Positions 1,601 through 24,272 of a stretch of 64,000 nucleotides of DNA are shown one piece after another. A program made the translations under genes and the position numbers. The notes below the pieces were generated by a model. The model saw only the letters and a program-made list of their open reading frames with translations, was not told the DNA's origin and searched no databases. Each line of letters begins with the position of its first letter. Positions within the stretch are counted from its first letter, which is position 1. This DNA is from Naegleria gruberi (lineage: Eukaryota): NCBI GenBank assembly GCA_000004985.1, contig GG738854.1. One strand, given 5' to 3'.

Positions 1601-4600
1601 TCAATGTAACGTGCCAGTATCACTGTTGGAATTTTGGTAATTATTAAAATTATGTAATGATTGGAGAGGAATCAATCGGGGGAGATCATCGATTTTTTGA
1701 CATTGTGATTGTAATTCTTCCAATAAATCAATAATTTCAATAAATTCAGGTCTTTGTGAGGAATCCTGAGCCCAACATCTTTCCATGATTTGAACATATG
1801 ATTCTAAAAATCCAATAATTTCACTTTTTCCAAGATTTTCGATATGTTTCTTTGTAAAATTGTGTTCAATCCACTCATCAATTTGTTTTTCACTGAATGA
1901 TTTTGCATGCAACAGTTCTGGCCTGTGTCCTTTTGCAACTCTCATCAATATTTGGAAAACAGTTGTAGAGTTATCAATTTCATTTGAAAATGGTAATATT
2001 TCATATAATAGCTCCCACATTATTACTCCAAATGAATAAACATCCACTTTTGTGCTTTTACCTTTGTGATTATCTGAAAGTAATTCCTATAAAACAAAGT
2101 TCAACAAATCTATTTTCAATAGATACTTACAGGTGCCTATTGTATTTGTTAATGAATTCACAATAAAATACTTCCAAACTTACCATATAGAGTAAAGTTC
2201 CAACATTTGAGGTCATGGTTGCTGAATTGTTTGAAACAATTTTGCTCAATCCAAAATCTCCAACTTTTGCGTTCATAATCTTGTCCAATAAAATGTTCCC
2301 TGGTTTCAAATCTCTGTAATATTTTTGTTTAGGATAGAGTAAAACTCATAACATACCTGTGAATGATTTTGTGAGGTTTGATAGAATGTAAATATATCAA
2401 TCCTTTGGTGATATCAATCAAAATTTTAAGCTTGGTCTCAAATCTCATAATTTCTCTTCCTATTCTTGAGTTATAAATTGCCTTTTCTAGACTTCCATGT
2501 TCCATATATTCAACAACCATATATTTTCCATTGGTTGTGAGCGAAACTCCATAACAACTGACAATACAGGGATGTCTCAATGAGCTCATTAACATTGCTT
2601 CATTCTCAAACTCCTCATCATTTGAATCAGTTTTCAATTGTTTGATGGCAACATCAGTTCGATTCCACTTGGCATGGTAGATCATGCCCATTGCTCCTTC
2701 ACCAACTCTTTTTAGAATATTAATTTCTGATATTGGAATAATGTATTGTTGTCGTTTTTTTTGTGAATTAAGGATTTCCTTAGTATTAGAAGAATCTATT
2801 CCACTGTTAATACTATTTGAAGATATTAGTGGGGTGAATTCACTCTCAAATATAAATTCATTATCTGTAAACTTCCTTTCAATTTCCTTTTCAGCACGTT
2901 CTTGCTTCCTCAATTTCAACAATTTTCTTGTTATGAATATTCCTGCGTATAAAACTGCTCCAAATATAATTAAGAGTGAAATGAAACCTAATATTGCAGA
3001 GGTTAAAATAATTGCTATTGGAGAATATTCACAAATATAACCATTATCAAGCTTGTTTAAAATATAACTGTTTGGGCATGGAAGTATTTTCACTTTGACA
3101 ATTTTCTCAATGTCTGGAGTTACTATGATTGATAGAGAAAATTCTTTGGATATTTGACTTGGAAATATTTGCAAGCTCACTAATATTGTACGATTGTCAA
3201 ATAGATTATTTTGAGAAACAGTTCCATCTTCAATATTCGTTGGTCGAATAATCAACATATTCGGTTCCATCAATGATGAGGCAGTTTGATTGTAAAGATC
3301 TTTCACTAATACATTCATCTTGAATGATTCTCCAGGGTATATTTCAAGTTCATTGCCATTTTCTGTATTTCTTTCAAATTGAACTTCAACAGTTTGCAAA
3401 GGTGTCGCCACATTATTGCCATAGCATAGAGCATTATTTCCAACTATTATTTCGCCATTAACGGTCAACTGAGAGTAAATGCACCCTCCAGCATAAGCTG
3501 CAAGATTATTTTCACAAATTATATTCTTAATATAGGGAGTTACCGTGTTTATCCACATGGCCCCACCATTTTTTGCCGAGTTGTCATTAAAGGTAGAGTC
3601 AGTAAAACGAATTGAGCCAAATAATTTAGTTGTTTCAACATAAATTGCTCCACCTAAATCAGCAGTGTTTTTGGTAAATTGTGAATTTCCAATGTCTAAA
3701 TCTGTTCCATAAAGATAGAGTGTAGATCCTTTGCTTCCACCTGTATTTTCAATAAATTTACAATTTGTAATGGAAAGTGAATAGGACAACATTGTTTGAT
3801 CAAAAAATTCTAATAAAGCAGTGCCTGTTGTGAGTCTATTTTCAATAAACAAGCTATTGCGTATAAGTATTGCGATAATGCTAATAGAAGGATTATCTGT
3901 AAAGGATAAAAACCTTCCCCTATTATTTGAAACTAGACAGTTATTAATTGTTAAGGAGTCAACCATTTGTAATGAAAGCAACGCATTAGAGGCTGTATTA
4001 TTTTTAAAGGAACTGTTTGAAATTAGTATTCCAGAAATGCCAATCATTTGAAAGAGCATGTAATATTCAGTGTTTTCAATAGTTACTCCATTCAATTCAA
4101 TATTATCCAATGATATGAATAAAGCATTTGATAATACAGTAGAATTGATAATTGAAACTCTATTTCCAAGATTGAATTTCGAGATGGTCAGTAAGGAGCT
4201 TAATTTTGAGGTCCAAATAGAATTACCAATAGTAAATGTCTCAAAATTATCCATGTGAAAAACTCCATTAATTCTGCAATTATTAAATAGAACTGTTTTA
4301 GAATTTTTCAAATTAATAATTACTTCCATATTAGTGTTGAAAACGAATAGGTTTAATACTCCCACAATACTGAAATAATAATAAAAATTACAATCAATAA
4401 TCTCCAATTTTCGAATTTCCGAATGCATGACGACTGCATCTCTTGTTGTGCAATTTAACAATTTGAAATGTTCAATTCCATTATATAGTAAGAATTCCCC
4501 ACCAATGAATCCAAACTCTATTGTAAATGCATCAATAATTGCGTATGCCTGTAAATTGCCACGAGTAGTGAACAATTGCTTGTCCTTTCCTTTCCATATC

Positions 4601-5040
4601 ATTTCGAATCGATTTGCGTATTTGGAAAAATCGAAATTTGTTTCATAGCTTCGCATAAGTCCATTAATTACAATCACCATTGTGAAATTATCCAATTTTT
4701 TACCTTGATTAATTATTTCTGCCAATTCATTGTTTGCTGCTTTTACAATTTGACTCGGAGAGGAACATGGTTGATGCTCATCCCTACACGTTGCATTCAA
4801 ATCATCAACATTAGGAAATTCAGAATCTAAATAATAAATAGCTGAATATGATGATGAATTAATTGTATTGTTGGCCATTACATATTGATGATGCTCTTGT
4901 TCTTGTGGTTGGAGTACTACTACTAATTCATTATTAGCTAATATCGACTCGGACTTTGTTATTATCATCATTATCATCATCATAATAATTAAAAGCCTAA
5001 TAAATCTAAGAACCTCCGAAGAGGTGGTTATCTTGTGCAT
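1601..5040 (-). CDS. Receptor-type protein kinase with Pmp-like (GGA[ILV]/FxxN) beta-helix ectodomain, paralog 1
   Basis: Exons (minus strand) are 5040..2357, 2313..2184, 2136..2131 (microexon) and 2086..1601, with introns of 43, 47 and 44 nt (GTATGT..CAG, GTAAGT..TAG, GTAAGT..TAG). The N-terminus has a signal/anchor (LLIIMMMIMMII). The ectodomain carries repeated GGAIY, GGAMW and GGCIY plus FTKN and FNDN motifs. The transmembrane segment is IAIILTSAILGFISLLIIFGAVLYAGIF. Kinase motifs present are GEGAMGMIY, VAIK, HR|DLKPGN (split by intron 1), DFGLSK, LLYM-AP-ELL and DVYSFGVIMWELL. The first ATG is at 5040; the ORF-track 'M' at 5052 is a TTG. Confidence 0.7.
2131..2136 (-). other. Candidate 6-nt microexon (GCACCT, Ala-Pro of the kinase APE motif)
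   Basis: On the minus strand the sequence reads ...CTATATG|GTAAGT...ACAATAG|GCACCT|GTAAGT...TTTTATAG|GAATTA. The six nucleotides are flanked by a perfect acceptor and a perfect GTAAGT donor. Including them gives the canonical GTLLYM-AP-ELL motif. Skipping them is also in frame but leaves the kinase without the AP of APE. Confidence 0.45.
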
Positions 5041-5328
5041 TTTGTTTTTCAATTTTTGAATTTGATTATCCGTCGGAAGCCTTCATATTCTCTTTCTCTC
5101 TCTAGCTGTGTATTAAGATGGATTCAATAGATTGTCTGATAATTTCTTGAAGTTATCTTAAATTGTAATAGAATTTGTGCTTATTGAAATTTTTATTTTT
5201 TAATTTTATTTGATGATTCGGAAAGTTTTTTTAAAAAAAACTTGCTGCTTTAATTATTATTGAATCCTTAATTAGCCTTGAAAACTTTGAAAGTTCTCCT
5301 GTCAGAGCATGTCAACCCATCAAAAAAA

Positions 5329-5802
5329 ATGTCACAAGATAAAGAAGACTCTCTCACTGCATGGTTGAACAATATTGTTGTTGCTCTAGGTGAAGAAGAT
5401 ATAAGCAATATTAATCTTTTGCCTGTCACTGTCAGTGAGACATCAACAAACCAAACAGTTCCTGCAGGTGATAAGAAGGTTAGAAAGCGAAAGGAAACTA
5501 AACAACTACCATTCCCAAATATTCAATCAACAGACATTTCTGATGGACTTGTTTCCACTAACAGGCGAGTTTCGAATAATAACAAGTCGAGCAGCAAGGA
5601 CCAACAACAAATAGATTTGTTAAAGATTGGAAAGGGTTTCGTTCAACACACCACTTGGACTACTTCATCTGTTCTCCATGGGAAGAGAAAAGAAACTCTA
5701 GAAAATATTAGAAACTCAAAGAAGAAGAAGAAAGAAACAGTTGACCCACACGAGACGACCAAGATCTGCAATGCAAATGTGGCTCGCACATTGCATCAGT
5801 AG
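5329..5802 (+). CDS. Hypothetical basic, Ser/Lys-rich protein (possible nuclear protein)
   Basis: 157-aa ORF starting at an A-run ATG (caaaaaaaATG). It contains a KKVRKRKETK basic cluster and low-complexity S/N/K tracts. No recognisable domain. Confidence 0.3.
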   Translation: MSQDKEDSLTAWLNNIVVALGEEDISNINLLPVTVSETSTNQTVPAGDKKVRKRKETKQLPFPNIQSTDISDGLVSTNRRVSNNNKSSSKDQQQIDLLKIGKGFVQHTTWTTSSVLHGKRKETLENIRNSKKKKKETVDPHETTKICNANVARTLHQ

Positions 5803-5914
5803 TTTGACCCACTCGTTAGCGTCTTAACTATTCCAAATTTGTAAAATTAAAGGTTTCTAATAGAAATTTATTTCAAATTTAATTTTAAAAAATATTTTGC
5901 AATTTTAAAAAAAA

Positions 5915-7213
5915 ATGAATAATAATCAAAGATTTGATGTTTTGATTCTCTCCACCATTTTTTCATTTCTTCCCGCCAAAAATTATTTACTGAAAATTTG
6001 TCTTGTTTGTCGAGATTGGAATTTTTCAAATTCTTGTAAAATTAATAATCATGAGAATAATAACGATCAGAATTATCCTCTTCCGATGGTTGCACTTGAT
6101 TTATCCAACCGTAAGATTTTTGATGAAAAATTAGTAAAATTACTTGATGAGCAATTGGATCGGTATGATTGGAGAAATTTGAGAATATTAAATTTGGAGA
6201 AGAATCTTATTGAACGTATTGGTTGTTTGATGGAGACAGGGAGATCGTTGCAATTGAGTAATTTGAGAGTTTTAAATTTGAATGAAAATCAAATTGATGA
6301 GGAGTGTAGTTTGTTGTGTTGTGGTGTGGAAAATTTTATCAATTTGAAGGAATTATATTTGAGAACGAATTTTATTAGAAATATTGTTGTGAGAACGCAA
6401 TTTCCTGCTTTGGAAACGTTGGATTTGAGTGGTAATTGTATTGGAAATCAGGGAGTTGTTTCTTTATTGAAGGATGGTCTTGAAAATTTCCCAAACTTGC
6501 GAAAATTAGTGCTTTCTAATGTGGATATGAAGAGTTTGGATCCATTGCTCATGAATTGCCACAATTGCCCAAAATTGAAATGTTTAGATTTTAGTAATAA
6601 TTTTATTTATAACTCACAAACGATTCATTATAAGCATTTTAATTTTCCATTATTGGATGAGCTATATTGCTCAGCAGTTAATTCTACAGCTCGTTTACAA
6701 GAATTAATTGTGGAAAAATCACTTGATTCCTCCCTCACAACACTTGATTTATCACAATGTTATGTTGGAGAAGTTTTTTTGAAAGCTCTTTCTTTGGGAG
6801 AATTCAAGAAATTGACTAAACTCTTACTATCTAATAATGAAATTGGAAATGAGGAAGTTCTGCTATTGGGAAAACTTGACATGCCGAATCTAGTTCATCT
6901 CAATCTTGATGATAACCTAATTGGATTGGAAGGCGCTAACATCATTTCCAATTTTACTAATTTTCCTCAATTAGAATTTCTTTCCTGTAGAAAATATCCC
7001 GCAACAAAACACAAAACATTTGAAAGTTATTCATTGAATAATTTTCTTGAGGATTGCAGGGAGGAATTGGGAGAGGAATTAGAGGAGGAAGAAGAAGATT
7101 GTGAAGAGGATTATTATGGAGGTTTACGTAATTCGAAAGGAAAGGAAATTAGTTTTGTATCGTCGTTTGTTAGCTTTACTTGGACAAAAAGTGATTATGT
7201 CTATGTCTATTAA
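5915..7213 (+). CDS. F-box-like / leucine-rich-repeat (RNI-like) protein
   Basis: 432-aa ORF starting at ttaaaaaaaaATG. The N-terminus has an F-box-like segment (LILSTIFSFLPAKNYLLKICLVCRDW). It is followed by about ten LRRs of the LxxLxLxxNxI type (LRVLNLNENQI, LETLDLSGNCI, LTKLLLSNNEI, LVHLNLDDNLI). The C-terminal tail is acidic (EEEEEDCEED). Confidence 0.65.
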   Translation: MNNNQRFDVLILSTIFSFLPAKNYLLKICLVCRDWNFSNSCKINNHENNNDQNYPLPMVALDLSNRKIFDEKLVKLLDEQLDRYDWRNLRILNLEKNLIERIGCLMETGRSLQLSNLRVLNLNENQIDEECSLLCCGVENFINLKELYLRTNFIRNIVVRTQFPALETLDLSGNCIGNQGVVSLLKDGLENFPNLRKLVLSNVDMKSLDPLLMNCHNCPKLKCLDFSNNFIYNSQTIHYKHFNFPLLDELYCSAVNSTARLQELIVEKSLDSSLTTLDLSQCYVGEVFLKALSLGEFKKLTKLLLSNNEIGNEEVLLLGKLDMPNLVHLNLDDNLIGLEGANIISNFTNFPQLEFLSCRKYPATKHKTFESYSLNNFLEDCREELGEELEEEEEDCEEDYYGGLRNSKGKEISFVSSFVSFTWTKSDYVYVY

Positions 7214-7289
7214 TGGTTTAGAATAGCAACTGACTGCTATTTTGGTTTGTTTATTCCATCAAATAAACCGACATTTGACTTTAAAAAAA

Positions 7290-7895
7290 ATGAGACAAGA
7301 CAAGATAACATTCAACCCAGATAATTATTGTCTCATCTATGAAGAGGTAATGACATGCCAAGAAACAAGAAATATCTTTAAAGAATTCTTGAAGGAAAAC
7401 ATGGCGGAAGAACCACTTCTTTATTTGGACGAATGTGAAAAGTATAAAGTGGAATATGCCAAGTTGAAAGAGAAATTTAACGGTTTATCTTTGATGGTTA
7501 AAAGAAGTAGTAGTGTAGGAAATGTTTCTGATTTGGGAAACGAGACAAGTGGCAAGGAATGGGATAAAAATCAGTTGACTAAATTATTTGTGAATTTAAA
7601 AGGAATTATTGATGAGTTTATTGTGGAAGAGGCAACTAAGGAGTTGAATTTGTCGGTTAGGAAGTGGACGATAATGGAATGGCAGATAATAGAAGCAATG
7701 ATGAACGGATTCGAACAGGATTCGTCCAATTTTGAACTTTCGAATAATTTGTATAGGAAACTGGATATTAATGTGCTGTTTGAAAAGGTAGATTTAGTGG
7801 TTATGATAGATTTGAAAATGGATCAATTTCCTCGATTTATTCGTTCAAATTTAGCTCGAAAATTTCTATTAGAAAAGGGAGAACATTTCACATGA
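7290..7895 (+). CDS. RGS (regulator of G-protein signalling) domain protein, paralog A, terminating at an in-frame TGA
   Basis: ATG at 7290 (ttaaaaaaaATG). The RGS signature is present: NIFKEFLKENMAEEPLLYLDECEKYK ... KELNLSVRKW ... MIDLKMDQFPRFIRSNL. The reading frame stops at TGA 7893..7895. The aligned position in paralog B is AGA (Arg). Confidence 0.6.
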   Translation: MRQDKITFNPDNYCLIYEEVMTCQETRNIFKEFLKENMAEEPLLYLDECEKYKVEYAKLKEKFNGLSLMVKRSSSVGNVSDLGNETSGKEWDKNQLTKLFVNLKGIIDEFIVEEATKELNLSVRKWTIMEWQIIEAMMNGFEQDSSNFELSNNLYRKLDINVLFEKVDLVVMIDLKMDQFPRFIRSNLARKFLLEKGEHFT

Positions 7896-8296
7896 ACTGT
7901 GGCAATCGATATTTCGAAAGGTTTCAAAGTTGATTTGAGATTTAAACCAAAAGATTTGAAAGATAAGGAAATTAATGACAATCACATTTATTTTGGTATG
8001 TTAAATTGCAAAATTTTCATTGTTAACCATTTTTAGGATTAACCATCGTTAACATTCCAATATTTTCGTCATTCTTTTACAAACAAATGGCGATGAAAAG
8101 GACGAAAAGTATAAGGAAATCAATGATGAAAGAATTGGATCGATTAACAGATTATGGACGAAAGAAAATGGATACTAGTTCATTTGTGGATGAATTGAAT
8201 TTTAGAAAGTGTTTGGAAGAAAATTGTGTGAAATATCCGAATCGATCATGGTATAAGGAGTGGCTGGCTCTAAAACAAAATCCAACTCAATTTTAA
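7896..8296 (+). pseudogene. Post-stop continuation of RGS paralog A, still in frame and homologous to paralog B
   Basis: After the TGA the frame continues as TVAIDISKGFKVDLRFKPKDL. Paralog B has TRSIAIDVSRGFHVDIRFLPKDL at this point. A 41-nt GTATGT..TTTAG intron (7996..8036) joins this to exon 8037..8296. Its end, ...KYPNRSWYKEWLALKQNPTQF, resembles the paralog B C-terminus, KAHPQKSWYRDYLSLFHNKSL. Relative to paralog B there is an internal deletion of about 250 codons. Confidence 0.4.
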
Positions 8297-8339
8297 AGAA
8301 TTCCAATTTACAGAAAACTTAACATTTTGAAGTGTTATT

Positions 8340-11300
8340 TTAATTCATAAGAATGGAAGAACACTTATTGAGCTTGTCACAAATTTCTGCAAATGAAGGT
8401 CTTTCAACGTCCTTGTCCCAACATTTTGTCATTATTTCACACAACTCTTTCACAACAAGGGCAAGCTTCATCTCTGAATTACGAGAAGATCCAAAAATTC
8501 CTCCCTTCTCATTTTCCATCAAAAAGGAATTGACATATTCCTTCAATAAAGGATCCAATTGTTGATATCTTCTTGAAGATGAACTAATGTGATCACTGCC
8601 AGTACCTTGGAAGGAGAAATTCTTCTTGATTCTAAATGGAATTATTGGTCTCAATCCATTCACAATCTCTGTTGTAATTGAAATCATGTTAAAGTTAGGC
8701 AAGGTAATAGAATCAATTTGCTCAATATCAATGTTTGATTTCACGAGAGGAGAGTCATTTCTAAGTGGTTCCTTTTCCAATTCCACATCATCAATATTAC
8801 TATCTTCATCCAAATTAATTGGTTCGTAAGGTTTCACATTAATAAGATTCTTGTGCTTGACCATAAAATTCTTCATGGCTTCAAAACTTTCGGGACTGTA
8901 GGCACGTTCTTCAAAGAGCAATTCCCACATGATAATACCAAATGAGTAACTGTCACACTTTTCTGAATAGTCCTGACCTAAAATGAGCTCTGGAGGCATG
9001 TAAACTGGTGTGCCGATGGCTGATGTGAGTACACTTGCAGAGTCTTGAGTAAATTCTCTTCCTAATCCAAAATCACAAATCTTGGCAACATTATTTTCAG
9101 AGATGAGAATATTTTCAGGTTTGAGATCTCTGTGAATCAATGGTGGATCTAAACTATGCAAATATTTCATACCATACGCAACATCTAACAAGTAATTGAG
9201 CTTTGTTGCCAGGTTGAGTGGGGTCTTTTTCTTTTTCGAGTCGTGAATCTTCTTTCTCAATGTACCTCCACTCAAATATTCAATGACAATGAACCGATCA
9301 CTTGGTGTAATTGCAATTCCATAGAAAGTAACAATATTTGGGAATCTGAGAGTACTGAGAATATAAGCTTCCTTTTCAAAAGTAGAGTTGATTGTGTCTG
9401 TTTCTGCTTGATTGTCTTCATCATATTGAGTAATGTCAATATTAATTCTCTTGACAGCTACAGTGTTATTCATCCATTTAGCTAAAAATATTACTGATTC
9501 ACCACCTTGGCCAATTCTTTCAACAATTTGCAGGTCTTCAGGTTTGATAATCCAACTCTTATCTTGATTGAAGGAGCTATTTCCTGCTGTATCATCGTGC
9601 AAACTGTGTTTGGAAGAAATAAGTTGATATTGGAGTAATCTCTTGTGTAAATCTTCTTCTGCTTGTTCTCTCTTCTTTAATTCTTTGAGTTTCTTTTTGA
9701 AGAAGTACAAACATAATGTGGTTAATAAAATGATAAAGGTCAAACCAAGGGCAACAATAACACCGAGTGAAATGAGTAATGCATTTTGAACTGCTGAATT
9801 GAAAATACATGCCTGATCATCTACACTGTAATCAAAACTGAAAGGACAATTTGGTTCAAGGTTGACTGGGAAGTAAAATTGTTGAATAACATTCTTACAT
9901 TTAAAGTAAAGAATTAAGGTTTGATTGAGTTGTCCTTTCACTTGTACGTTACTGAAAATAGCTGTATCATTTGAGAAGGTTGTAGAAACGTGATTCTTGT
10001 AGTCTTCTGTGTTGTTAATATTAGTTGTGAAAACCAAATCAATATCTGCATTCTTGATGCTTTCCATTCTTTCATTGAACAAGTCAAACGAATCCAAGGT
10101 TATTTTCACAAATTGACCTGCATATAAATTAAAACCAGTGTACTTTTTCAAGAGAAGAGACTTGAATATACTAAGAGGAAAATCGTACGGAGTATCCTTT
10201 GGTTCCCATCCATTACTAGAAAGAGCAAAATACTTTGGATCAGAGGCATAATTGTCTCCATAAAGTTCAGCATAATTATCGTCAAAAAAAGCAGTCTTGA
10301 ATTGGCTGGCAATACGCATACTGGTTGTTCCTACGAGAAATACAGCACCTCCAGAGTTTTCTGCTCTATTGTGAAGGAAATTAATATTGCTAAATTGGAA
10401 TTTTGAATTTGGATAATCAATGTTATACAAGTACATTGCTCCACCATTGTCTGCCTTGTTATAGCTCAGAGTGATATTAGAAACTGTAGTAGAAACAGAT
10501 GAAGGAGTGAAGAGAATTGCACCTCCCATTCCTTCTTTCACTGGATTGTGGACAATTCTATTGTACTGAAATAAGGAATCTTGGATATTCAAATTAGTTA
10601 AACCATAGGCAAATACAGCACCTCCTCCTGGAGCTTGCTCAGAGTAGGCCTCTTCAGGTTTGTAAATAATTACATTTTGACTAAATTTAGAACTTCTCAC
10701 ATCCAATAAATCTCCTCTCGACACGTAAATTGCAGAACCACGAATACTGGCAACATTACCTTCAAAAGAGGAATCCTTCAAAATGAGCGAACTCCTTCTC
10801 TCTCCATAAATACCGCCAGCTCTTCCTTGTCGTGCTAGTCCATAGTTGAAGCTACTTCTCTCCACAAATGAGTATGTACTTGATTTGAGATAGAGAGCAC
10901 CTCCATATCCATCACAGGTACTGTTAAATAGAGTTGAATCGTTCAGGAAAAATTTTCCCTTCTCAATAAAAATAGCTCCTCCATCGTACTTGGAATAACA
11001 TTTAGAGAATGTGGAATAGGTAATACTTGAATAAGGAATATCCAAATACAAACATCCACCAGAATCTTGACTTGTTGCTGTTTCGAATTTTGAAGTTGTA
11101 ATTGATACAGATCCACTCTCAGAAGTGACATAGATAAAACCACCAAATGAAGAGAGGGCAGTATTGTAACCATCAGAAAATGTGGAGCGTACCAATGTGA
11201 AAACTCTATCAGTAACTCGTTCGCTTTGATCTGAAATGTAGATTGATCCTCCATGTCTCAAAGCAGTATTTCCCTTAAAATTACAACGTAAAACACTCAA

Positions 11301-12928
11301 CTTCAATGTGTTTGAATTAATGGCTGCTCCAAACTGGGCACTATTATTAATAAACTGTGAATCAATAACCTTCAAACTGTCTGATGCTATCTCTGAAAAT
11401 TGTTGCAAGTCCAAATAACGAACTGCAGATGCACTGCTCGTTCCCTCAAAAACACATCCAATAATGGATCCATTCCTCACATTTTGTAAGAAGAGAGCTC
11501 CACCATCATTGTCCAAAAATTTTGTACCAACCACAGATGTAGCTTGTGAATCAGCAATAGCAAGAACAGGTAACGTGCCCATATTACTATTTTCCATAAA
11601 GGCAGAGTTTGCAACCAACACAATGTAATAATTTTGAATGGAAACAAAGTGACAGGTTGTGTAACTGAATTGAACATTGGTAATAAAAGCACTAGTACCT
11701 GTCAATGACTCACTACTCTTAACTTGTAAACTTCCAGTAGCATTAAAGTTGGTATCAGAGATTTTAACTTTGGAACACGTTGCACAAGTCATGGCACCAA
11801 CACTGTAACACTGACTTCCAGTGCAATTTGTTGCAAAATTGCTCTTCTCAATTGTGAACTGTCTAGCTGTGTGTCCAAAGATGAAATAGTGTTTTGGTGA
11901 TGTGGATGTGCACTTTTGAGTTGAGGCACCAAGATCTTTACTTTCATCCAAACCAATTGTTACATAACTGGATGCAACATTGAGTGTAAAGGAAACATTT
12001 CTGAATAAAGCTTCACAATTATTATCCAATTCAAAATCAATATATGATTCAGATGGTCCTAAATTCCTCACCACTTGCAAATTTTCATAAAAACAAGTGC
12101 CACCTGAACATTCAACATAAGAATCGACCAGTTTAGAATTTCTAATGACAATATCTGGTTGCCAAGTTGCCGAAAACACATCAAACATTCGATTCAACTT
12201 GTTCATCTCCACCTCTTCAAATATAACTCTTGTTGTGTAAATACTCGAAACATAATCATTCTCTACTGCAATCACAGCATTAACATCCCAATTTACAAAG
12301 GCAATATTGGTGAATGATATTTCCATTTTGAAAGGATTGATTCGTATAAAGGGAGAATAATCAGCACATGAAATGAAAGTCTTTGACAATCCATAAAAGT
12401 TGGCAATAATCTTGCTTTGGATAGCCTCTGAATTGTTATAGTATGGCAAGTCAATTGCACAATTATTACTACCATCACTCACATCTATATTATTCAATAA
12501 ATAAATATTTAATTCTTGTTCTTCCGCTATTATTACATGATAATAATTATAATAGTATTATTAGTATTAATTTACATATGATGATGATTATTATTAATTT
12601 ACATGATGATCATTAATTTACATTGAAAATCAACAAAATTACTATTCGCATATATAAAAACAAACTACCTACCTGTACTAGTCGTATTGAACAGCACACT
12701 CCACCTCTCCAGTACATATTTTAGTGAGTTACATGGCTGAGAAGGGGTAGAACAGGGAAAGAAGTTATTGTTACTGCTGCTACTAGCCTTCGGATCAATG
12801 TAGACACTACTCATTATCTTGGCAATTGTGGTGTTGATGGTCAAAATGTTGAGAAACGATAGCACCACGAGGATAGAAATCAATCGCCACACCTCATGAT
12901 CCCTTCGGGTCATCATTGAATGTCTCAT
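8340..12928 (-). CDS. Receptor-type protein kinase with Pmp-like beta-helix ectodomain, paralog 2
   Basis: Exon 1 is 12928..12673 and begins MRHSMMTRRDHEVWRLISILVVLSFLNILTI (signal anchor). The intron 12485..12672 runs GTAGGT..ATAG; an alternative acceptor would place the exon 2 boundary at 12526. Exon 2 is 12484..8340. The ectodomain (roughly 750 aa) has many GGAVF, GGAIL, GGAMY, GGALY and GGAIF repeats plus FSQN, FQYN and FLHN motifs. The transmembrane segment is ALLISLGVIVALGLTFIILLTTLCLYFF. The kinase domain is in one exon: IGQGGESVIF, VAVK, HRDLKPENIL, DFGLGRE, YMPPE, DSYSFGIIMWELL. There is a long insert between subdomains IX and XI. Stop is TAA. Confidence 0.7.
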
Positions 12929-14206: not shown

Positions 14207-14301
14207 TACTATAGTAAATAGATATCTATTGGTTATAAGGGCGAAGCGTTGGGTTTTTTTTTAAAGTTTTTTTATGATACTTTTTAATTGTACAGAAAAA
14301 A

Positions 14302-14689: not shown

Positions 14690-15480
14690 GTTTTATGTGG
14701 AAGTTTATCGTTATGGAATTAGATAGTAATTTTGATATTGGAAAAATTCAAGTTGGTGAATCATCATCAGAACACACACCAACCATCATCATTAATTTTT
14801 ACCATCATTATAACAATAGTATTTGTAGACTTTAATTTGAGAATAGTATTATTTTGACAAAAGTTAATTTTTCACTAAATTGGCCAATATCTTCCGATGT
14901 ACTGGACCATTATCAGAAATTCAAATGTGGGATTATTTGTAATAGTATATAGCAATACATATTCGAGTTTCATAGATTGGAATTTTGTTTTCATCAAGAT
15001 AGGTACATGTATATATTCAAAATAATATTGACCATATTTCAACATGTACTTCATCATCAACCAAACTTTCTTCGAATAGTACCATTCAAATACTTCATCA
15101 ACAACACTCCGAATAATAGTTTTTGGATATTTGGAGTTTTCACCTTGTTGGTGGTGTATTCATCATTCACCATATATTTTCATCATGATGATTGAATTTC
15201 AACAACATAGTATCATTAGTAGGGATGTCTAATATCACCATCAAGAGAGTTGGAATTTTTCCACTTAGTATTCATAGAGTTGTGGAATTTTCACTTCATC
15301 ATATCTTTTATCATCAATATCATCAGCAAGTCCACTTCCGATCATTAAGGTAAATATCTTAATGGTCATCATCATCACACCATCAATAAAATTCACTAAT
15401 GGTGAATTTTCCAACAAGGTAAATTTCAAGGTCGTAAATCTTGCTGATTTTCCACCTTGAATTATTTCAATAATTAAATA
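14690..15480 (+). repeat. Dispersed non-coding repeat, copy A
   Basis: It aligns with 31430..32110 in the same orientation. Shared blocks include ggaaaaattcaagttggtRaaYcatcatcRgaaca...ccaaccatcatcatt...catcattataaYaatagta.tatttgtRg, a second block ttttcactaaat, and a third, aggtWcatgtatat...caacatgtacttcaYcaac...attcaaatac. Identity within aligned blocks is roughly 75 to 85%. No ORF. Confidence 0.5.
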
Positions 15481-15919
15481 AAATTATATTTTTATTATTA
15501 GCATTGTGTTTTCTTGTAGCAACATCTGTTTTATGTATTCTCCACTTGATTTCATCAAATAAAATAGTAAATTAGAACATGATGTCTTTTCCTAATATCA
15601 TTGGTTTGCTGCTTCAGAACAAAAAATTACAAATTAAGGTGGATTCTTCACATACAGTCACTTTTGCCATTATGGTAACAACTCAAATAAGGATGAATCA
15701 ATATTGTTTACTGGAATTTCCAGGAAACTTTTTTCAGCGAAACTCTTTCCTGGAAAGACCAGAGGAAAAATCTTTCCGGCTACAATTAGGAAAGATTACA
15801 ATTTGTGAATTTTGAAAGTGTGAAAAGAGCAACTTAATGGTCAACCAAGAATGAGGAACTGGCTGCCAAGATCGGTCACATGTCAATAACTTGAATCATG
15901 CAAAAAACATTAAAAAAAA

Positions 15920-16561
15920 ATGAGAATTAGACCATCTCACTTTCGTCGTTTATTCCCAGACGAATGTTCTATTCGAATGGTCGCTTTTTTTCTTCTCCTA
16001 ATCATTAGCATTATCCTTTGCATTGCTTGCCTTATCGGAACGATTATTACCTATTCCCTCTATCAAGGAGAGGATCCAAAATATTGGACACTTGACCGTG
16101 ATCCATTTACGATGGTTTTTGCACATACAAATTCATGTTATGTGAAAGACGTTGTTTGTTCGAGGAGATATTGTGATATATATATGGAATTTCCACTTCT
16201 TACTAGTATTGTCTTTTGGAATTATTCGTCATTGGCTAAAGTTTCACCTGGTGTAGTTTATGATATTTCGAATAGTTTTGATTATGCCAAAATATCTCCA
16301 AATATTACACTAGAAAAGAATATATTGTATGGAACAGCAAGAACTTCGGATCAATTTACAAGTATGCTTGGAAAAACTATTACATGTTTTACAGATTATT
16401 CTGAAAAGGTATACATTAGTCCAATAATTCCAGCCAGTAATGTAAATTATGAATTAGGAAATGCTGGGCTAGCTACTGCAATTTGTAGTGGAATATTCTT
16501 TTTGACTTCATTAGGAATGGTGTTTATTTACTTTTTTTGTGGTTGGCTTTATAAAACCTAG
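15920..16561 (+). CDS. Small membrane protein (N-terminal and C-terminal transmembrane segments)
   Basis: 213-aa ORF starting at taaaaaaaaATG and ending in TAG. There is an N-terminal hydrophobic segment (VAFFLLLIISIILCIACLIGTII). There is also a C-terminal hydrophobic segment (GLATAICSGIFFLTSLGMVFIYFFCGWLY). The region between them is Cys-containing. No known domain. Confidence 0.45.
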   Translation: MRIRPSHFRRLFPDECSIRMVAFFLLLIISIILCIACLIGTIITYSLYQGEDPKYWTLDRDPFTMVFAHTNSCYVKDVVCSRRYCDIYMEFPLLTSIVFWNYSSLAKVSPGVVYDISNSFDYAKISPNITLEKNILYGTARTSDQFTSMLGKTITCFTDYSEKVYISPIIPASNVNYELGNAGLATAICSGIFFLTSLGMVFIYFFCGWLYKT

Positions 16562-16678
16562 TTTCATAATTTTCAATTCGGTACCAAGAGCTTGGGATAG
16601 ACAAGCTTATCGAATCATCTCAGAAATACGAGAAGTTCCAAAAAAAGATAATTCGACAGAATAATACCAAGTAGTATT

Positions 16679-18863
16679 TTATTTCTTCTTTGGTATTTCA
16701 CCATTAGATGAGGAAGTTCTCTTTCTCTTCTTTTCATAGGTTGAGTTATTCGTTTCAGTAGTGCTTAGTTTTGATTCATTTTTTTCTGGATTGGAAACAG
16801 TATCACGTATGGAAGGAAAGAAATATGATCTGTAATCTTGTGTATCGACTATATCTGTAATGCCAAGTAATGCCAAGCATTCTCTTGTGGTAGGTCTTTT
16901 CTTTCTTTCTATGGCCACCATTTGTTTAAGCATGTCAAATAGCATACTACCCTTATTGGGCTCTAGCTCGTGGCATTTGATTGAAATTGTTTGCCATATT
17001 TCATCAGCAGTATTTTCCAACCGTTTCTTATCTATATCATTTTCTAATATCAATTCAATAAAAACTAAACCAAGAGAGTAGATATCAGTTTTTGGATGAA
17101 TAAAGTTTTTCCCTGTGGATTCCTTTTCAGGAGCATTGTAAGAAGAGGTTCCAGCAGTTGACTGTATCCACAAGTTTACGAATTTGCAAGTATCTCCATC
17201 TTCAATGTCAAAACGCTTGGCTAGTTCAAAATCAATGAATTTACAAAAAACGTTTGGGCCTTTTTTTTGGTCGACATTTGTTTCCTTAATAACTGTCGAT
17301 TTTAAATGATCCTCTTCTAATATTATAATATTACTAGGTTTAATGTCATTGTGTATTATCTTTCTTGAGTGAATGTGGTCAATTTCAAGCAGCAGTTGAG
17401 AAATAATGTGCAATTTTTCTTGGTGTGATCGTTTGTTAACAGTATTGAGCTCGGTTCCTGCAATTGATATCTCGATATGTTCTTTACAAACTACATCATT
17501 CACAGTTACTCTGTCATGAAGAAGAAATATATTTCCAATATCAATCCATTCTGGTTTTTCCGAAAGGAAAATCTTTACAAACACTGGTTGAGAGGAATGA
17601 TCAAGCACACCATAGAACATGTCTTTGGTAGCAGTACCTCTTCCTTGACCAGTACTTATCTCGAAAAGATACTCCTGAAGTGTGATAGTTGTTGTAAGCA
17701 CTGTGTCTAATGATGTCGTGAGATGAATCACCAACTTATCACCCTGTGAAATATCAGATCCACTTTCAATAGAACTTTCCATTCTCTTTCTTCCCATAGA
17801 CTCTTTGGTAATTGTGTCGATAAGAATGTTCTCTTCAAAATTAGCTTGTCTACTTGCCTCTAGTAAGAATGAAATAAATGTGTCAAGTAATTGTTTCTCC
17901 TCTGTCGTTGAAGGGTCAAGTGGAAACATCCCAACATTAAATAATTGATATTTGTATCTTTTCTTGATACGTGAAGTTTGTGGAACAAAAGCTTTAATTC
18001 CCAGCACACGAATAAACCTCTTCTCTGTCAGTAATCCATAAGTAACCAGTTTGTCGATTTGGATTGCATGTTTTTCAGAGGGCTTTATGTTTTTAAGTAA
18101 GGTGCCATGAACCATTCTTATTAGAGCCACTACCTTCAAGAAATCAGGGTGAGCAGTCTCGAAGTCTACCTTGTCCTCATGCCCAAACTTTAGACGATTG
18201 AAAGGAACGTCTTTCTCATTCTTTAATTCTAATCCGGAAAAATTATCAGGTGAAATAGTGCCCTGCAGTAAGTTTGCTACTTCCTTGCTGAGATATCTCG
18301 AGTTTTTTATCAAATTGCTGATAGAAACATTTCTAAATTGTTCTGAGCTCTATAATGTTTGGTTAAAAAACTTACTCATTAATTTTGAAGCCGTAGAGAG
18401 TAGGTAGTTGTAATAGTTTGTGGTATTTGGTGTTATTGGTATGAAACATTTCCTCTCCCAAAGAATGCATTTTGGTTGGGTGTAAGCAATCGGATAAAAG
18501 TTGAAAAGCTGCACTCAAATCTATCAAGTTGAAAACATCGACAACATGCCCAAATTTTTCAATGACCAAACGATAATGTGTGGAAATGGCTTCATTGTCC
18601 TGTTTGAGATTGTCAATGAGGCAGAACAATTGTTCTATGAAATTTCGAAAGTCGGTTATCACAGATACTTTTTGTATTGCAGCATGGAGGTTGTGATCCA
18701 AATGATGATGACGATCTGAAAGCCAAGTTACTTGCAATAAATCCTCTGCAATACAGAGTTTGTGGTTGAATTCTTCGGAGCCTTCTCTCCAGATATCTTT
18801 GCGAAGATCGAGGTTCTTTTTCTTGTGGAGTTCCTCAAGCTTTTCATCAAAGGATTTTGTCAT
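16679..18863 (-). CDS. Atypical protein-kinase-like protein (possible pseudokinase)
   Basis: Exon 1 is 18863..18376 (MTKSFDEKLEEL...). A 43-nt GTAAGT..TTTAG intron spans 18333..18375. Exon 2 is 18332..16679. The C-terminal kinase-like fold carries HNDIKPSNIII in place of HRD and IDFELAK in place of DFG. It retains GTSSYNAPE and DIYSLGLVFIELI. No glycine-loop GxGxxG was seen. Confidence 0.6.
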
Positions 18864-18879
18864 TTTTTTTATCAGGCAA

Positions 18880-18895
18880 TTTAAGCGCGAAATTT
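18880..18895. promoter_or_regulatory. Palindromic TTTAAGCGCGAAATTT (E2F-like GCGCGAAA) motif about 20 bp upstream of the ATG at 18863
   Basis: An exact GCGCGAAA octamer, the reverse complement of TTTCGCGC, sits inside an AT-rich palindrome in the 5' flank of the minus-strand gene. Confidence 0.3.
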
Positions 18896-19071
18896 AGTCA
18901 AATACATTAAGGCAAGACTTGTACCAATATACAATGTACTTACATTGACTCGTTTCGAACGAAATGAAGAATACTGACATGACGATGGCAGATTACTATA
19001 ATTATGGCTTGTTATGCGTTACAAATCCTTCAGAAAGATATTCCTTACTTTATTTGAATAAATAATTAATT

Positions 19072-20537
19072 TCAATAATCTTGCTGGGCAAGGAGAATGA
19101 TAACTTGAGAGGCAAGGGACATGTCATGAAGTGAAACGAATTCGCTCTGTGAAAATGTAAACTTGAATGAAAAATTCAGTAAAAACTTACAGTTGAGTGG
19201 AAATTGTGGCCACCTGCGAAAATGTTAGCAGTTGGAAGACCCATCCAACTCAATTGAGAACCGTCAGTTCCTCCTCTAATAGAAACTTGCTTAACTTCCT
19301 CAATATTCAATTCCTTATAGGTTTCGATAATGCTCTTTTCCAAGTATGGATACTTGTCAATGATTTGTCTCATATTTCTGTATTGCTTGGTGAAAGTTGT
19401 TTCGATGGTTGCATTTTGATGTTCAGATTGAAGTTTGGCAACAATTTCCTTGATAATTTTTTGATAATTTTCCAAACCTTCATCATCAAAAGCTCTCAAT
19501 AAACATCTAATAGTTGACTTGTCAACATTTCCATTAAAATCCATACAGTGAATGAATCCTTGTCTGTCCTTGCTTACTTCTGGTGTTAAAACTTGATCAT
19601 TTGAAAATATCAAATCCAAAAATTTAGAAGCGACTTTGAGAGAGTTGACCATTCTACCATATGAATATCCTGGGTGAATGTTAAATCCTTTGAAAACCAA
19701 GGTAACAAGATCAGCACTGAAAGATTCAATATTATAGGTTCCAACTTCAGCTCCATCAGCAGTAAAAGCAACATCAGCACCAAACTTGGTTAAATTGAAA
19801 TAGTGTGGTCCTCTTCCAATTTCCTCATCAATAGTAAAAGCAATCTTAATATCACCATGTTTAATACTTGGATTATTCACTAAATATTCAACAGCAACCA
19901 TCATTTCAGCAACTCCTGATTTGTCATCCGATCCCAACAATGTTTCTCCACTGGCAGTCACAATATCATGTCCAATCATTTTAGCAAGCGATTTTCCATC
20001 AATTGCATACTCTACAATTGTTTTTCCATTCACAACCAAATCATTGCCGTCCTTATAATTTCTATGAACAATTGGCTTGACATTTGCTCCACTAAGCTCT
20101 GTAGCAGTGTCCATATGTGCCAAAAATCCAATATTTGTCTTTCTTTCGACATTTCCTGGCAAGACAGCATATACATTTCCATATTGATCCATTTCAGCTT
20201 GCAAATTCAAAGCTTTCAACTCATCAAGTAAAACCCGTGCAAAAATTAATTGTTTTTCAGTGCTCGGAACAGAAGCAGAAAGTGCATCACTCTGTGTATC
20301 AAATGTTACATAGTGCAGGAAACGTTCTTCCAATCGTTTTCTCATCCAATCTTGTTCCGTGATGGAAAATTTGGAATTTTCATAAATTAATTTTTTAATA
20401 TTTGATGGTGATGATTGTTCTCCGTTGAGTCCGATCTGGATGGATTCTTCCTGTGTTGCTGCGATGACGGAATAAGAAGCAAGCAACAAGAGGAGAAGCA
20501 AGGGAATAAATTGTTTCATTTTTTTTGTAATCAACAT
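19072..20537 (-). CDS. Peptidase M20B family tripeptidase (PepT-like) with N-terminal signal peptide
   Basis: Exon 1 is 20537..19191. A 44-nt GTAAGT..CACAG intron spans 19147..19190. Exon 2 is 19146..19072 and ends in TGA. The signal peptide is MKQFIPLLLLLLLASYSVIAA. M20 motifs are present: FLAHMDTA, GSDDKSG, FTIDEEIG and GGTDGSQLSW. The spliced C-terminus, GGHNFHSTSEFVSLHDMSLASQVIILLAQQDY, matches the conserved PepT C-terminal helix. Confidence 0.7.
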
Positions 20538-20712
20538 TTATACCAGTTTACAATATAAACTCAACTCTGATTCTACTCTTGGTGTTGTTCCAATCAATTA
20601 AGAATAAGGGAACAGAGAACATCAGTTGTTTTTTGAGTTTTTGATATTCGAAAGATCAAATACTTTAGATATCTAAAGGAATAGACTTAAATGCAAATGA
20701 TAGAAGACGGAT

Positions 20713-23700
20713 TTACATGAAAAGTGGGCTATCATCACATAATCTGGCAATTTCATACAAATGTTGGATAATTTCCTCAAAGCTTGGTCTTTCATTTGGG
20801 AGCTGATGCCAACACTGTTGCACTAGTTTGATATACTTGGAAACACCTTCAACAAATAGATTGCTGTTCTCATTATTGATTGGTTGAATAAATAATCTTG
20901 TCCATTCCTTCAATTGTTCATCATTTGAGAAGGGAATGTTTGGTCTTTTTCCTCTCACTATCTGGGTAATAACTGTTAGACTGTTACAATCTGACATCTC
21001 TGTAAAATAGTTCATCTTTTTGTGATTGTGAGTCGTATAAGGAACTTCTTCAAAAAAGAGTGACCACATAATAATTCCAAACGAATAGACATCAATCTTG
21101 GATGCATTCTTGATTCTTTCCTCTTTTGATAAGGAAGATCCTCCAAATGTACCTGATCCAATTGATGAATTACTATTCATATTTGAATTGGAATAATGGA
21201 TGGAGTCGGTAGCGTTTGAGAATCCAGAGAACTGTTCATTTTCAAAAAGCTCAGAATTATTAGAAACTCCAGAATCAAAATTCTCTGGAAATATTTGTTT
21301 AACACAGTGAAACTAGAATAAAACTTACCTGGAGGGCAATATAGAAGTGTACCAATGTTCAATGTCATACTAGTTTCAAACATGTTATTTCCAACAATTC
21401 TTGAAAGTCCAAAATCACAAATCTTTACACAATTTTTATCATCAAGAAGTACGTTTGCAATTTGAATGCCAGAATTCAATAAATTGTAATATAAATTACA
21501 TACCTGGTTTCAAATCACGATGACAAATCATATTTGGTTTAAGTGAATGCAAATAGGACATTCCTCTACTCACTCCCATCAAAATATCCAATTTCTGTTT
21601 CATAGTCAACTTTTGGCGACCAACTTTGCATTCACTGATTAGTTTTTCCAAACTACCTCCTTTCATGAATTCAATCACCATATATTTCTGGTTCTTGTTT
21701 GGAACACAAAAACCGTACATTGTAACTATTTCATCTTAAGTTATTTGAAACATAGGGGAATATTACATACCAATATTAGGATGTCTCAAACTAATTAAAA
21801 GTGCTCCTTCTCGTTCAAAAACATCTTCGTCATCTTGGTCCTTGATTGATTTAATTGCTACTTCAATTCCTTTCCATAATCCTTGATAAATCATTGATTG
21901 ACCTCCTTCTCCAATACGTTTCTGAATTGTAATATCCTCGGTTGGAATAATAAATGACGCCTTACTGTTAGGTCTATCCTCAGACTCTTCGAAAATAATC
22001 TTCTTATCAAGTAATACCCTTTCCATTTCAGATTCAGCTCTGGTTCGTTTTCTCAGTAGCTTTGATTTGTATCTAGCAACACAAAGTCCAATTAATCCAA
22101 TACAAGTGGTAATCAATGTCACTGCTGCTAAGCTTGTGACTAGAGGGAGAATGTAAAAAATGTTCACACAACCTGGTGCCTCATATCTATAGAAAGAAGG
22201 GCAAGAATCGAGAATAATATCCACCGTATAAGTTACTCTCTCATAGGTTACTGAAAGCTGCACACTTCTTGCTTCCTTGACTTCAGAATTTGAATACAAG
22301 CTAAAAGGCAGCCTGAAATCAGTATTGTTTGAGGAATCTGTCTTTAAAAACAGACTAGAATCACTAACTTGAAGAGTAATTGGAACCTTAGGTGTTTCAA
22401 TTAATCTTCCAAAAATGTTTCTTGCCTCAATCTCAATAATAAATTTTTGCCCCAAATAGGCTTTTTGAGTACCATTATAAACCGTGTGAGGATTGACATC
22501 AAGCTCAATAACTTTGTACTCAAATTCAAAACAAGGAGAGGAAATAGAGTCGTCATTGTCATAATAGTATTCTTCATTGATATAAATGGACCTATTACTG
22601 AGCACTTCTGAGTATCCAATTTTTCCATATTTTGCAGTGTTTGCATAAAAGACATTACTTGGAGTAATCGTGACCCGTATCTCTTTTGGTGCTTCCCCAA
22701 AGAAAATTACACCTCCCTTCTTTGCTATGTTTCGTTCAAAGTAACTTGTACTTATTTCAGAACTTCCTGTTACATAGAGTGCACCTCCTATGGTGTTTTC
22801 ATTTCCATTTCCAATAAATTTCGAGCCATCCACAGATAACACGTTTATATCGTATTTCGCACGAGACCTATATTCATAAAATATCGCTGAGCCCTTTGGA
22901 GCAACGTTATTGTAAAACTCACAATTCTTGACATGAAAAATAGCACTTGATTCAATATAAATTGATGATGTAGTGCAATTTAAAAATCTGGAATTTTGCA
23001 CAGTAGAAGATTTTTCGAAATAGTCATTGGATGGAATAATAGTATCATACGAAATTACATAATATATTGCTCCATTATAAGCATTTGGTTTCACATTAAT
23101 AAATTCTGAATGATCAACAAGGAAATAATGAATATCTTGCATGTGTAAACAAGTTGCAGAAATGTTGTTACATGACAGGTTTGTAATTTGTAACTCTTTG
23201 CATGTACTGATAAATATCATACTGCCTTGTGTGTTACTGTCATAGACTCTAACATTGTCAATCACTAGTTTGACGATAGAGGATACAAATAGCCAATTGG
23301 TTCCCATTGAAATGTTACTGTTAGTTATGTATGCGTCAATGGAATATCCAATATATAATACAGGATATCCTATTGCAAACGTTCCAATATAATCAATATT
23401 GTCAATAATTATTTCATTAGATTCAATGATTGAAAGTATAGAATCATCTCCAGTATCACACTCAAGTATTTTAACATCATCTACCCTTTCAATGAAGAGT
23501 TTGGCTTTCAGAGCAGAGTTTGTAATTTGCAAAATTCTTGAATTTCCTATAAAAGTATCCCCTCTGATTGTCACATGATCAAGCTCAATAATATCATAGT
23601 TAGCCATTCTCAAGTTTGTATCTGATATATCAACTTGTTGAAATATTGATACAGTTCCTTTTCTTGGTGAAAGAACCATTTGATTATTATATGTAAATTC

Positions 23701-24272
23701 ACCAAATTTCAAAAGTGATGCACTGAATTTACAATTTGTAAATGTTGCTTTGGGTGCACTCGTCAACGACATAGCAACATTGGTAAATCCAATATCTTGT
23801 GCCTCCACTGAAATGATGTTATTTTGATCAGTAAGAAGAGTTTGCCTTCCAACATGACAAACAATTGAGGCCATACCAGAATTCAATCCATTCTCAAATC
23901 TAACTCGATAACTAAAACCAGTTCTCTTATAAAAAGAAGGAACCTGACATTGATTCTCTGCTTGAATCCTAAAAACCACCGAGATAATAGTCTCTCCAAA
24001 CATCATTGTTTTTACCATATTATTCAAATGATTAACAGCACTACTCATATAATTACACAAATACTTTCCAGCACCTCCGGTACATGATGAACTAAATATC
24101 GAACTGATTGTATACTGATAACTCCTTTCCGAAACTCCAAGTACCAAATTATTATTTTCATTAATTATATTAGTACACAATAAAACAACAATGATCATCA
24201 AGTAATAAATTATTCTTGATGAACCCGAAGCGACTCTCCTTCTTGTATTCGTCATCACCATCATCGTGTGTC
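20713..24272 (-). CDS. Receptor-type protein kinase with Pmp-like beta-helix ectodomain, paralog 3
   Basis: Exon 1 is 24272..21771, from MMVMTNTRRR through signal anchor IIYYLMIIVVLLCTNII to ...LRHPNI. A 45-nt GTATGT..ATAG intron spans 21726..21770. Exon 2 is 21725..21504 (VTMYGFCV...HRDLKPG). The next intron starts with GTATGT at 21503 but has no AG acceptor before the IANVLLDDKNCVKICDFGLSR exon (to 21329). A 44-nt GTAAGT..CCAG intron spans 21285..21328. The last exon is 21284..20713. The kinase has LLYCPP|E, DVYSFGIIMWSLF and CWHQLPNERPSF. The ectodomain has GGALYVTG, GGVIFFG, NGAIYYV, FIGNGNEN and FERNIA. Confidence 0.65.

Follow-up and report, generated by a model that had tools for sequence, protein, structure and literature searches.

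Paralogous genes of Naegleria gruberi predicted to join a Pmp-type beta-helix ectodomain to a cytoplasmic protein kinase

Introduction

To our knowledge, the means by which Naegleria perceives its prey, the surfaces it meets or the tissue of a host have hardly been described. Receptor kinases with lineage-specific ectodomains are a familiar kind of protein, as exemplified by the receptor-like kinases (RLKs) of plants and the transmembrane kinases (TMKs) of Entamoeba, and it may be asked whether Naegleria encodes receptors of comparable design. The question is raised by a 64,000-nt stretch of Naegleria gruberi DNA (hereafter the window, to which all position numbers refer), in which an original prediction, made from the sequence alone, had recognized three minus-strand genes, termed A, B and C here. 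Each was thought to join an ectodomain built from repeats like those of Chlamydia's polymorphic membrane proteins (Pmps) to a kinase domain.

Using gene models built by hand, we arrive at the reading that A, B and C are probably old paralogs of the vahlkampfiid amoebae that encode type-I receptor Ser/Thr kinases, with a Pmp-type beta-helix outside the cell and a tyrosine kinase-like (TKL) kinase inside. The literature covered, which included the genome papers of Protostelium, Acrasis, Physarum and Acanthamoeba and did not extend to that of N. gruberi (Cell 2010), yielded no account of receptor kinases in Naegleria or of a fusion between Pmp and kinase domains. The combination of a Pmp and a kinase domain is visible in the automatic annotation of some public entries, and kinase-less Pmp-like single-pass proteins are already known in trichomonads (PMC6701047).

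Results

Ectodomain, membrane helix and kinase on one polypeptide

Rebuilding the gene models placed all three genes where they had been predicted (Table 1), except that the upstream end proposed for C (24272) lies 8 nt from the first in-frame ATG (24264). A hydropathy scan revealed one N-terminal hydrophobic segment and exactly one internal transmembrane (TM) helix in each protein (residues 675-700 in A, 985-1012 in B and 702-728 in C), and the ectodomains contain 7-14 N-x-S/T sequons each, which would permit N-glycosylation, with basic residues following the TM helix. A signal sequence that looks cleavable, an extracellular domain, one TM helix and a kinase are therefore found, at the sequence level, on one polypeptide in A, B and C alike, and their predicted layout is that of type-I single-pass membrane proteins with a cytoplasmic kinase. 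The ectodomains had been expected to comprise 700-750 residues, and their actual lengths are approximately 645 (A), 950 (B) and 665 (C). The basic juxtamembrane stretch that was anticipated behind the single TM helix is present in all three proteins as KLRKQERAEKE (A), KELKKREQAEED (B) and LRKRTRAESE (C).

Separate genes for the ectodomain and kinase portions are ruled out by single open reading frames (ORFs) spanning the ectodomain, the TM helix and the N-lobe of the kinase in A (2329-5052), B (8340-12497) and C (21763-24345), so that no splicing event has to be invoked to demonstrate the fusion. The original prediction had named separate genes as a possible refutation, which the sequence itself excludes.

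Pmp-type repeats in the ectodomains

The Pmp character of the ectodomain is clearest in gene B, which has nine GG[ASC][ILVM] motifs (GGALF, GGSIY, GGCLY, GGAIF, GGALY, GGAVF, GGAIL, GGAMY and GGAVF) as well as 17 FxxN motifs. Its adjoining GG motifs are spaced 26-33 residues apart, and the wider gaps are multiples of this distance. Gene B exceeds the cut-offs of both relevant models, scoring 34.7 bits against the Pfam model Chlam_PMP (PF02415; cut-off 20.6) and 16.0 bits against the TIGR01376 POMP_repeat model (cut-off 15), whereas A and C remain below the curated cut-offs. The expectation of ectodomains packed with GGA motifs is likewise borne out by B and not by A and C, in which GG[ASCG][ILVM] motifs number three and one (nine in B; 0.1-0.2 expected from shuffled sequences). 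Strict FxxN..GGx pairs occur four times in B, twice in A and once in C compared with approximately 0.01 in the shuffle test, and loose FxxN...GGA[ILV] pairs occur eight, four and three times compared with approximately 0.2-0.4, the signal being weak in C. About three recognizable rungs can be discerned in C, near residues 450-515, as well as three in A (Table 1). The rungs consist of FxxN and GGA[ILV] pairs, which B preserves well and which have mostly degenerated in A and C.

Several further results connect the divergent ectodomains to the same fold. Seven of the eight other family members tested pass Chlam_PMP. In profile-profile comparisons with hhalign, the ectodomain families of A, B and C match each other with 97.7-99.8 % probability and kinase-less metagenomic Pmp-repeat proteins with 98.5-99.9 % (the A family matches Pmp proteins with 99.6 %), scores which can be inflated by repeat-rich, compositionally biased beta-helices. 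AlphaFold2 models are available for two ectodomains. That of B has a mean predicted local distance difference test score (pLDDT) of 70.7, with most of the helix core at 80-97, while that of C reaches a pLDDT of 87.6 and a predicted template modeling score (pTM) of 0.82 and confidently includes the membrane-proximal beta domain. The predicted fold is the right-handed parallel beta-helix of Pmp repeat proteins. Published work on the Pmp beta-helix has FxxN packing against GGA[ILV] within each turn (PMC10715098), and the motif and modeling results agree with this rung model. Neither the Pmp middle domain (PMP_M) nor an autotransporter barrel gave a Pfam hit at E values up to 10.

A conserved juxtamembrane motif and a TKL-like kinase

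Directly after the TM helix, on its inner side, lies a family-specific helix motif, [KR]x[KR]E[KRQ]AE[KE]..E.[KR][LI][LI], and just outside the membrane a CP...C cysteine pair ends a small membrane-proximal beta domain. Both features are kept in nearly all of the approximately 25 family members, belonging to four species, that are described below.

The kinase domains of A, B and C align without variation at VAIK, HRDLKPxN, DFG, (A/P)PE, DxYSFG and the Arg of subdomain XI, with the provision that the motif complement of C presupposes the splicing of a non-canonical intron 2. The catalytic loop HRDLKPxN is of the Ser/Thr type, each of the three belongs to the RD kinases and has an activation segment rich in Ser/Thr, and they are predicted to be catalytically competent. 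Their activation-segment motifs are YMAPE, YMPPE and YCPPE, just as first reported. Arabidopsis CTR1 is the best match of all three kinases in the PDB (103-144 bits), followed in the case of A by TAK1, RIPK4, ZAK and RIPK2, and the label TKL-like can thus be retained provisionally, with the tyrosine kinases ITK and CSK scoring only slightly lower. Plant RLKs occur among the kinase sequence matches at 93-111 bits, the solved structures of SYMRK (108 bits) and CERK1 (103 bits) ranking below CTR1 and TAK1. The kinase of B contains an insert of about 100 residues within its C-lobe, while that of C has one of about 55 residues between PPE and DVYSFG.

An old multigene family of vahlkampfiids

The relatives of A, B and C are easily overlooked, as a word-indexed homolog search was insensitive (seven matches for A and two for C) and the family became visible only with an exhaustive phmmer search, in which gene B was compared with 1.84 billion cluster representatives and which recovered relatives along their full length. 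Approximately 20 of the 150 best hits combine GGx repeats, one TM helix about 200 residues upstream of the HRD motif, and a kinase. The family comprises at least 25 genes from N. gruberi, N. lovaniensis, N. fowleri and Willaertia. Public entries name NAEGRDRAFT_80827, 70310, 69813 and 74710 in N. gruberi and FDP41_007123, FDP41_001441 and FDP41_009158 in N. fowleri, together with at least ten genes in N. lovaniensis and at least four in Willaertia magna, all of these members being labeled "hypothetical" or "predicted".

The paralogy proposed for A, B and C is upheld, and it is old. Their kinase domains are 35-46 % identical, and overall identity is approximately 25-30 %. The ectodomains can barely be aligned pairwise, with 20-30 % identity between paralogs, and in tblastn the ectodomain of A matches that of B with an E value of 1e-4 while that of C matches neither. 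A neighbor-joining tree, calculated without bootstrap, places B together with orthologs from N. lovaniensis and Willaertia, C beside N. lovaniensis 011057 and N. fowleri 007123, and A beside N. gruberi 69813. A recent tandem duplication was rejected on account of the barely matching ectodomains and the placement of each gene in a different subclade. As judged from these comparisons, A, B and C are old paralogs that lie within 23 kb and belong to a multigene family of the vahlkampfiids (Naegleria and Willaertia).

Public gene models and introns

The window is nuclear DNA of a heterolobosean amoeba, with a GC content of 31-38 % and short introns of the GT-AG type, and two of its receptor kinase genes correspond to public N. 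gruberi entries. P0013 (685 aa) is identical to residues 417-1101 of gene A, including YMAPELL, and P0001 ("serine/threonine protein kinase [Naegleria gruberi]", 1328 aa) is 100 % identical to gene B and begins 138 aa later. Both public models start at an internal Met and lack the N-terminal 416 (A) and 138 (B) residues, the signal peptide among them, which has hidden the receptor topology. A look-up of public gene calls in the surroundings of P0001 yielded nothing. The junction of exons 1 and 2 in gene B, as well as its signal peptide, is backed by unbroken alignments to the N. lovaniensis ortholog P0002 and to P0022. The present models restore the N-termini of A and B and add gene C.

The predicted intron numbers (three in A, one in B and three in C) were recovered, and six of the seven introns are GT-AG. 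Gene A includes a 6-nt microexon that encodes the Ala-Pro of APE; replacing it with a single 97-nt intron was rejected, as this would delete the Ala-Pro that P0013 keeps. The claim that intron positions are non-homologous does not hold throughout, since intron 3 of A (2087-2130; phase 0, between CCT and GAA) and intron 3 of C (21285-21328; phase 1, inside GAG) are located just 1 nt apart at the P|E of the aligned APE. The closest homolog found for C is the ortholog-like P0020, with approximately 34 % protein identity, which is encoded on L001 (Logan assembly of SRR25266757) and also carries the insert between PPE and DVYSFG. This gene has intron 1 (HPNI|V) in common with C and lacks introns 2 and 3 (L001 4080-4230), which indicates intron turnover within the family but, at such a level of identity, does not bear out that the turnover was recent, as had been supposed. 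A leucine-rich repeat (LRR) protein gene (4792-6864, minus strand) adjoins the C-like gene on L001.

Is gene C still functional?

The one exceptional intron, intron 2 of gene C, has a canonical donor and no AG acceptor. When all combinations of a GT, GC or AT donor with an AG or AC acceptor were enumerated, none kept both HRDLKPxN and DFG, and reading through the intron leads to a stop immediately after DLKPGM. A single A-to-T change of an AAATAG acceptor would account for the AAATTG found. In addition, nothing identical to any part of the C protein was returned from 5.8 billion sequences, among which A and B were found at once, and C seems to have no entry among the public proteins of N. gruberi and not to have been annotated.

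These observations can be explained by a non-canonical 3' splice site, by a single-base assembly error, or by very recent inactivation of the gene, and the lack of a public protein model fits either of the latter two. Should C be a recently inactivated pseudogene, the locus would consist of two working receptor kinases and one relic, a scenario which we regard as a serious possibility while leaning slightly the other way. Against a pseudogene, all four exons of C remain open in a genome of 33 % GC, for which reason any inactivation would have to be very recent; none of the remaining six introns departs from the canonical form, and the 46-nt intron itself is normal in size and donor. A non-canonical acceptor or a single wrong base in the assembly would look identical to a pseudogene.

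Genes in the vicinity

Beside and between A, B and C lie unrelated genes, which code for an ADP-ribosylglycohydrolase, for an M20 peptidase, for proteins with LRRs or an RGS domain and for another kinase (Table 1). The kinases encoded by the two further protein-kinase genes of the window show approximately 27-31 % identity to the kinase domains of the receptor family and are unrelated to it.

Table 1. Coordinates of the receptor kinase genes, their parts and neighboring genes in the 64,000-nt window
Feature	Position	Strand	Description
Gene A	1601..5040	-	1101 aa; exons 5040-2357, 2313-2184, 2136-2131, 2086-1601
Gene A introns		-	n=3, each GT-AG, 43-47 nt; hand-built model
Gene A signal peptide	5040-4951	-	
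Gene A beta-helix ectodomain	4950-3019	-	
Gene A Pmp-type rungs	3475..3678	-	three recognizable rungs, FTKNTADLGGAIY, FNDNSAKNGGAMW, NNLAAYAGGCIY; residues 455-522
Gene A TM helix	3018-2941	-	
Gene A juxtamembrane region	2940-2716	-	
Gene A juxtamembrane motif	2880-2940	-	
Gene A kinase	~2716 to 1604	-	
Gene A microexon	2131..2136	-	GCACCT, 6 nt; Ala-Pro of APE; flanking canonical introns of 47 and 44 nt
Gene A stretch absent from public model	3790-5040	-	N-terminal
Gene B	8340..12928	-	1466 aa; exons 12928-12673 and 12484-8340; single 188-nt intron
Gene B ectodomain	down to 9789	-	
Gene B Pmp repeat region	10251..11600	-	residues ~381-830; 9 GG[ASC][ILVM] motifs
Gene B TM helix	9788-9705	-	
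Gene B juxtamembrane motif	9640-9700	-	
Gene B kinase	9533-8343	-	
Gene B stretch absent from public model	12515-12928	-	N-terminal
Gene C	20713..24264	-	1138 aa, assuming splicing of intron 2; exons 24264-21771, 21725-21504, 21457-21329, 21284-20713
Gene C signal peptide	24264-24157	-	
Gene C ectodomain	24156-22162	-	
Gene C TM helix	22161-22081	-	
Gene C juxtamembrane motif	22020-22080	-	
Gene C intron 2	21458..21503	-	46 nt, GTATGT...AAATTG; canonical donor, no AG acceptor
ADP-ribosylglycohydrolase gene	452-1495	+	beside the receptor kinase genes
LRR protein gene	5915-7213	+	receptor kinase neighbor
RGS-domain protein gene	7242-7895	+	receptor kinase neighbor
Further protein-kinase gene	16679-18313	-	no beta-helix ectodomain
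M20-family peptidase gene	19176-20537	-	receptor kinase neighbor
Further protein-kinase gene	~35943-36479	+	no beta-helix ectodomain

Discussion

The present analysis describes a family of vahlkampfiid proteins in which a Pmp-type ectodomain is predicted to be displayed on the outside of the cell and a kinase on the inside. The individual parts of this interpretation differ in their certainty. We are highly confident of the architecture of A, B and C, while it seems reasonably probable that the proteins serve as signaling receptor kinases. The proposal that their ligand is a glycan or the surface of prey is offered tentatively, being drawn by analogy, and we would not be surprised to see it replaced.

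Based upon these features, a possible mode of action can be outlined, the individual steps of which draw upon what is established for receptor kinases and for adhesins and glycan binders of the beta-helix kind. Firstly, the long face of the extracellular beta-helix would bind an extended ligand, the likeliest being a polysaccharide or a particle surface, such as that of bacterial prey, the substratum or other cells. Secondly, ligand binding would cluster the receptors, allowing their kinases to trans-phosphorylate the Ser/Thr-rich activation segments. The signal might then be passed to the adhesion, phagocytosis and motility machinery, much as in plant RLKs and Entamoeba TMKs. Adhesion, phagocytosis and motility would be the obvious outputs, because the amoeba is bacterivorous and crawls on surfaces.

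Certain observations weigh against such receptors, or at least against extending the interpretation equally to all three genes. Gene A scores below the cut-offs of both repeat models (14.7-16.3 bits for Chlam_PMP and 13.8 bits for TIGR01376), and gene C has no match to PF02415 or TIGR01376, its nearest approach being 25.0 bits to Beta_helix (cut-off 25.9). The possible inflation of the profile-profile scores mentioned above has to be counted here as well, as does the AlphaFold2 model of the B ectodomain, in which the final, membrane-proximal 160 residues have a pLDDT below 50. Given an intron 2 without AG and the lack of a public model, gene C may not yield a functional kinase. Finally, the Pmp-like proteins of Trichomonas are found mostly in the endoplasmic reticulum and Golgi rather than at the surface (PMC6701047).

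Among the alternatives concerning function, the proteins could be mainly adhesins that mediate attachment without ligand-regulated phosphorylation, the kinase being a vestigial or scaffolding tail. In Chlamydia and in single-pass surface proteins of Trichomonas, beta-helices of the Pmp type provide the scaffold of adhesins (PMC10715098, PMC6701047), Pmp-type single-pass proteins increase adhesion in the latter organism (PMC6701047), and the ectodomains studied here diverge as rapidly as adhesins do, given their low identity between paralogs. A vestigial kinase, however, is difficult to reconcile with the complete agreement of A, B and C in their catalytic residues (Lys, HRD, Asn, DFG, APE and the Arg of subdomain XI) or with the majority consensus of a 22-sequence family alignment, which has the same catalytic motifs. 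Moreover, conservation across the family is highest in the kinase and the juxtamembrane motif, which together with the invariant catalytic residues argues for selection on catalysis and leaves this alternative improbable. The ectodomain could instead be an enzyme tethered to the kinase, a surface polysaccharide lyase or hydrolase comparable to phage tailspike depolymerases or the cell-surface hyaluronidase TMEM2. Digestion of prey capsules or matrix would then be the task of the protein, and signaling possibly a by-product. This seems at least as improbable, since identity to tailspike- and TMEM2-type enzymes is 7-15 %, neither Pfam nor NCBIfam detected an enzyme family, and the sequence signal is one of Pmp repeats, scaffolds of passengers or adhesins that have no enzymatic role.

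A receptor kinase function would make this family a set of concrete candidates for sensing in Naegleria, as its members are predicted to be surface-exposed, contain a druggable kinase and are present in N. fowleri. In a more far-reaching scenario, vahlkampfiids, including the brain-eating pathogen N. fowleri, would employ an expanded and rapidly diversifying set of beta-helix receptor kinases as pattern-recognition receptors for bacterial or host surface glycans that trigger adhesion, phagocytosis or trogocytosis. We consider this scenario rather unlikely as it stands. If true, it would represent a third independent invention of surface recognition by receptor kinases, besides plant RLKs and the receptor tyrosine kinases and receptor Ser/Thr kinases of animals, and one built upon a bacterial-type adhesin fold, echoed by a separate fusion of a Pmp ectodomain with a tyrosine kinase in Amoebozoa. 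The N. fowleri members and this apparent second, independent fusion raise the interest of the family somewhat. Known from work on adhesins of Chlamydia, the Pmp beta-helix has apparently been coupled to kinases at least twice in eukaryotes, which adds a class to the ectodomains of receptor kinases.

When A, B and C are compared with chlamydial Pmps (PF02415, TIGR01376), the similarities lie in the ectodomain: FxxN and GGA[ILV] are paired every 26-33 residues, these pairs are predicted to form the rungs of a right-handed beta-helix, and gene B, like most family members, passes the Pfam and TIGRFAM models. Unlike chlamydial Pmps, A, B and C are eukaryotic type-I proteins that begin with a signal peptide. 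The Pmp middle domain and the autotransporter beta-barrel are missing from them, and in their place come a small domain with the Cys pair, an alpha-helical TM segment and a kinase in the cytoplasm. A and C, furthermore, keep only about three canonical rungs. The trichomonad Pmp-like surface proteins (for example TVAG_212570 and TVAG_140850; PMC6701047) resemble A, B and C in being eukaryotic single-pass proteins with outer FxxN/GGA repeats followed by a C-terminal TM helix, and have been proposed to function in adhesion (PMC6701047). They differ from A, B and C in that their cytoplasmic tail is short, bears endocytic motifs and includes no kinase, and a conserved ATPITK motif has been described in them (PMC6701047).

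The overall organization of A, B and C is that of plant RLKs and Entamoeba TMKs, with a signal peptide, a variable ectodomain, one TM helix and an RD-type TKL or TKL-like kinase, encoded by expanded multigene families whose ectodomains evolve fast. The distinction lies in the type of ectodomain, which is a Pmp beta-helix here, as opposed to LRR, LysM, lectin, malectin and WAK ectodomains in plants and CXXC-rich repeats in Entamoeba. Among PDB matches, the kinase also scores higher against CTR1 and TAK1 (141-144 bits) than against solved RLK/Pelle kinases (approximately 103-108 bits). A further parallel, from a different supergroup, is provided by P0014 of the amoebozoan Planoprotostelium fungivorum ("tyrosine-protein kinase Fps85D-like isoform 2", 1706 aa), which has 17 GGx motifs, a PF02415 match, one TM helix and a cytoplasmic kinase. 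Unlike A, B and C, it contains the tyrosine-kinase loop HRDLAARN and has neither the CP...C pair nor the ...RExAEK... motif of the juxtamembrane region. To judge from its domain content, P0014 looks like an independent fusion of the same type of ectodomain to a different kinase.

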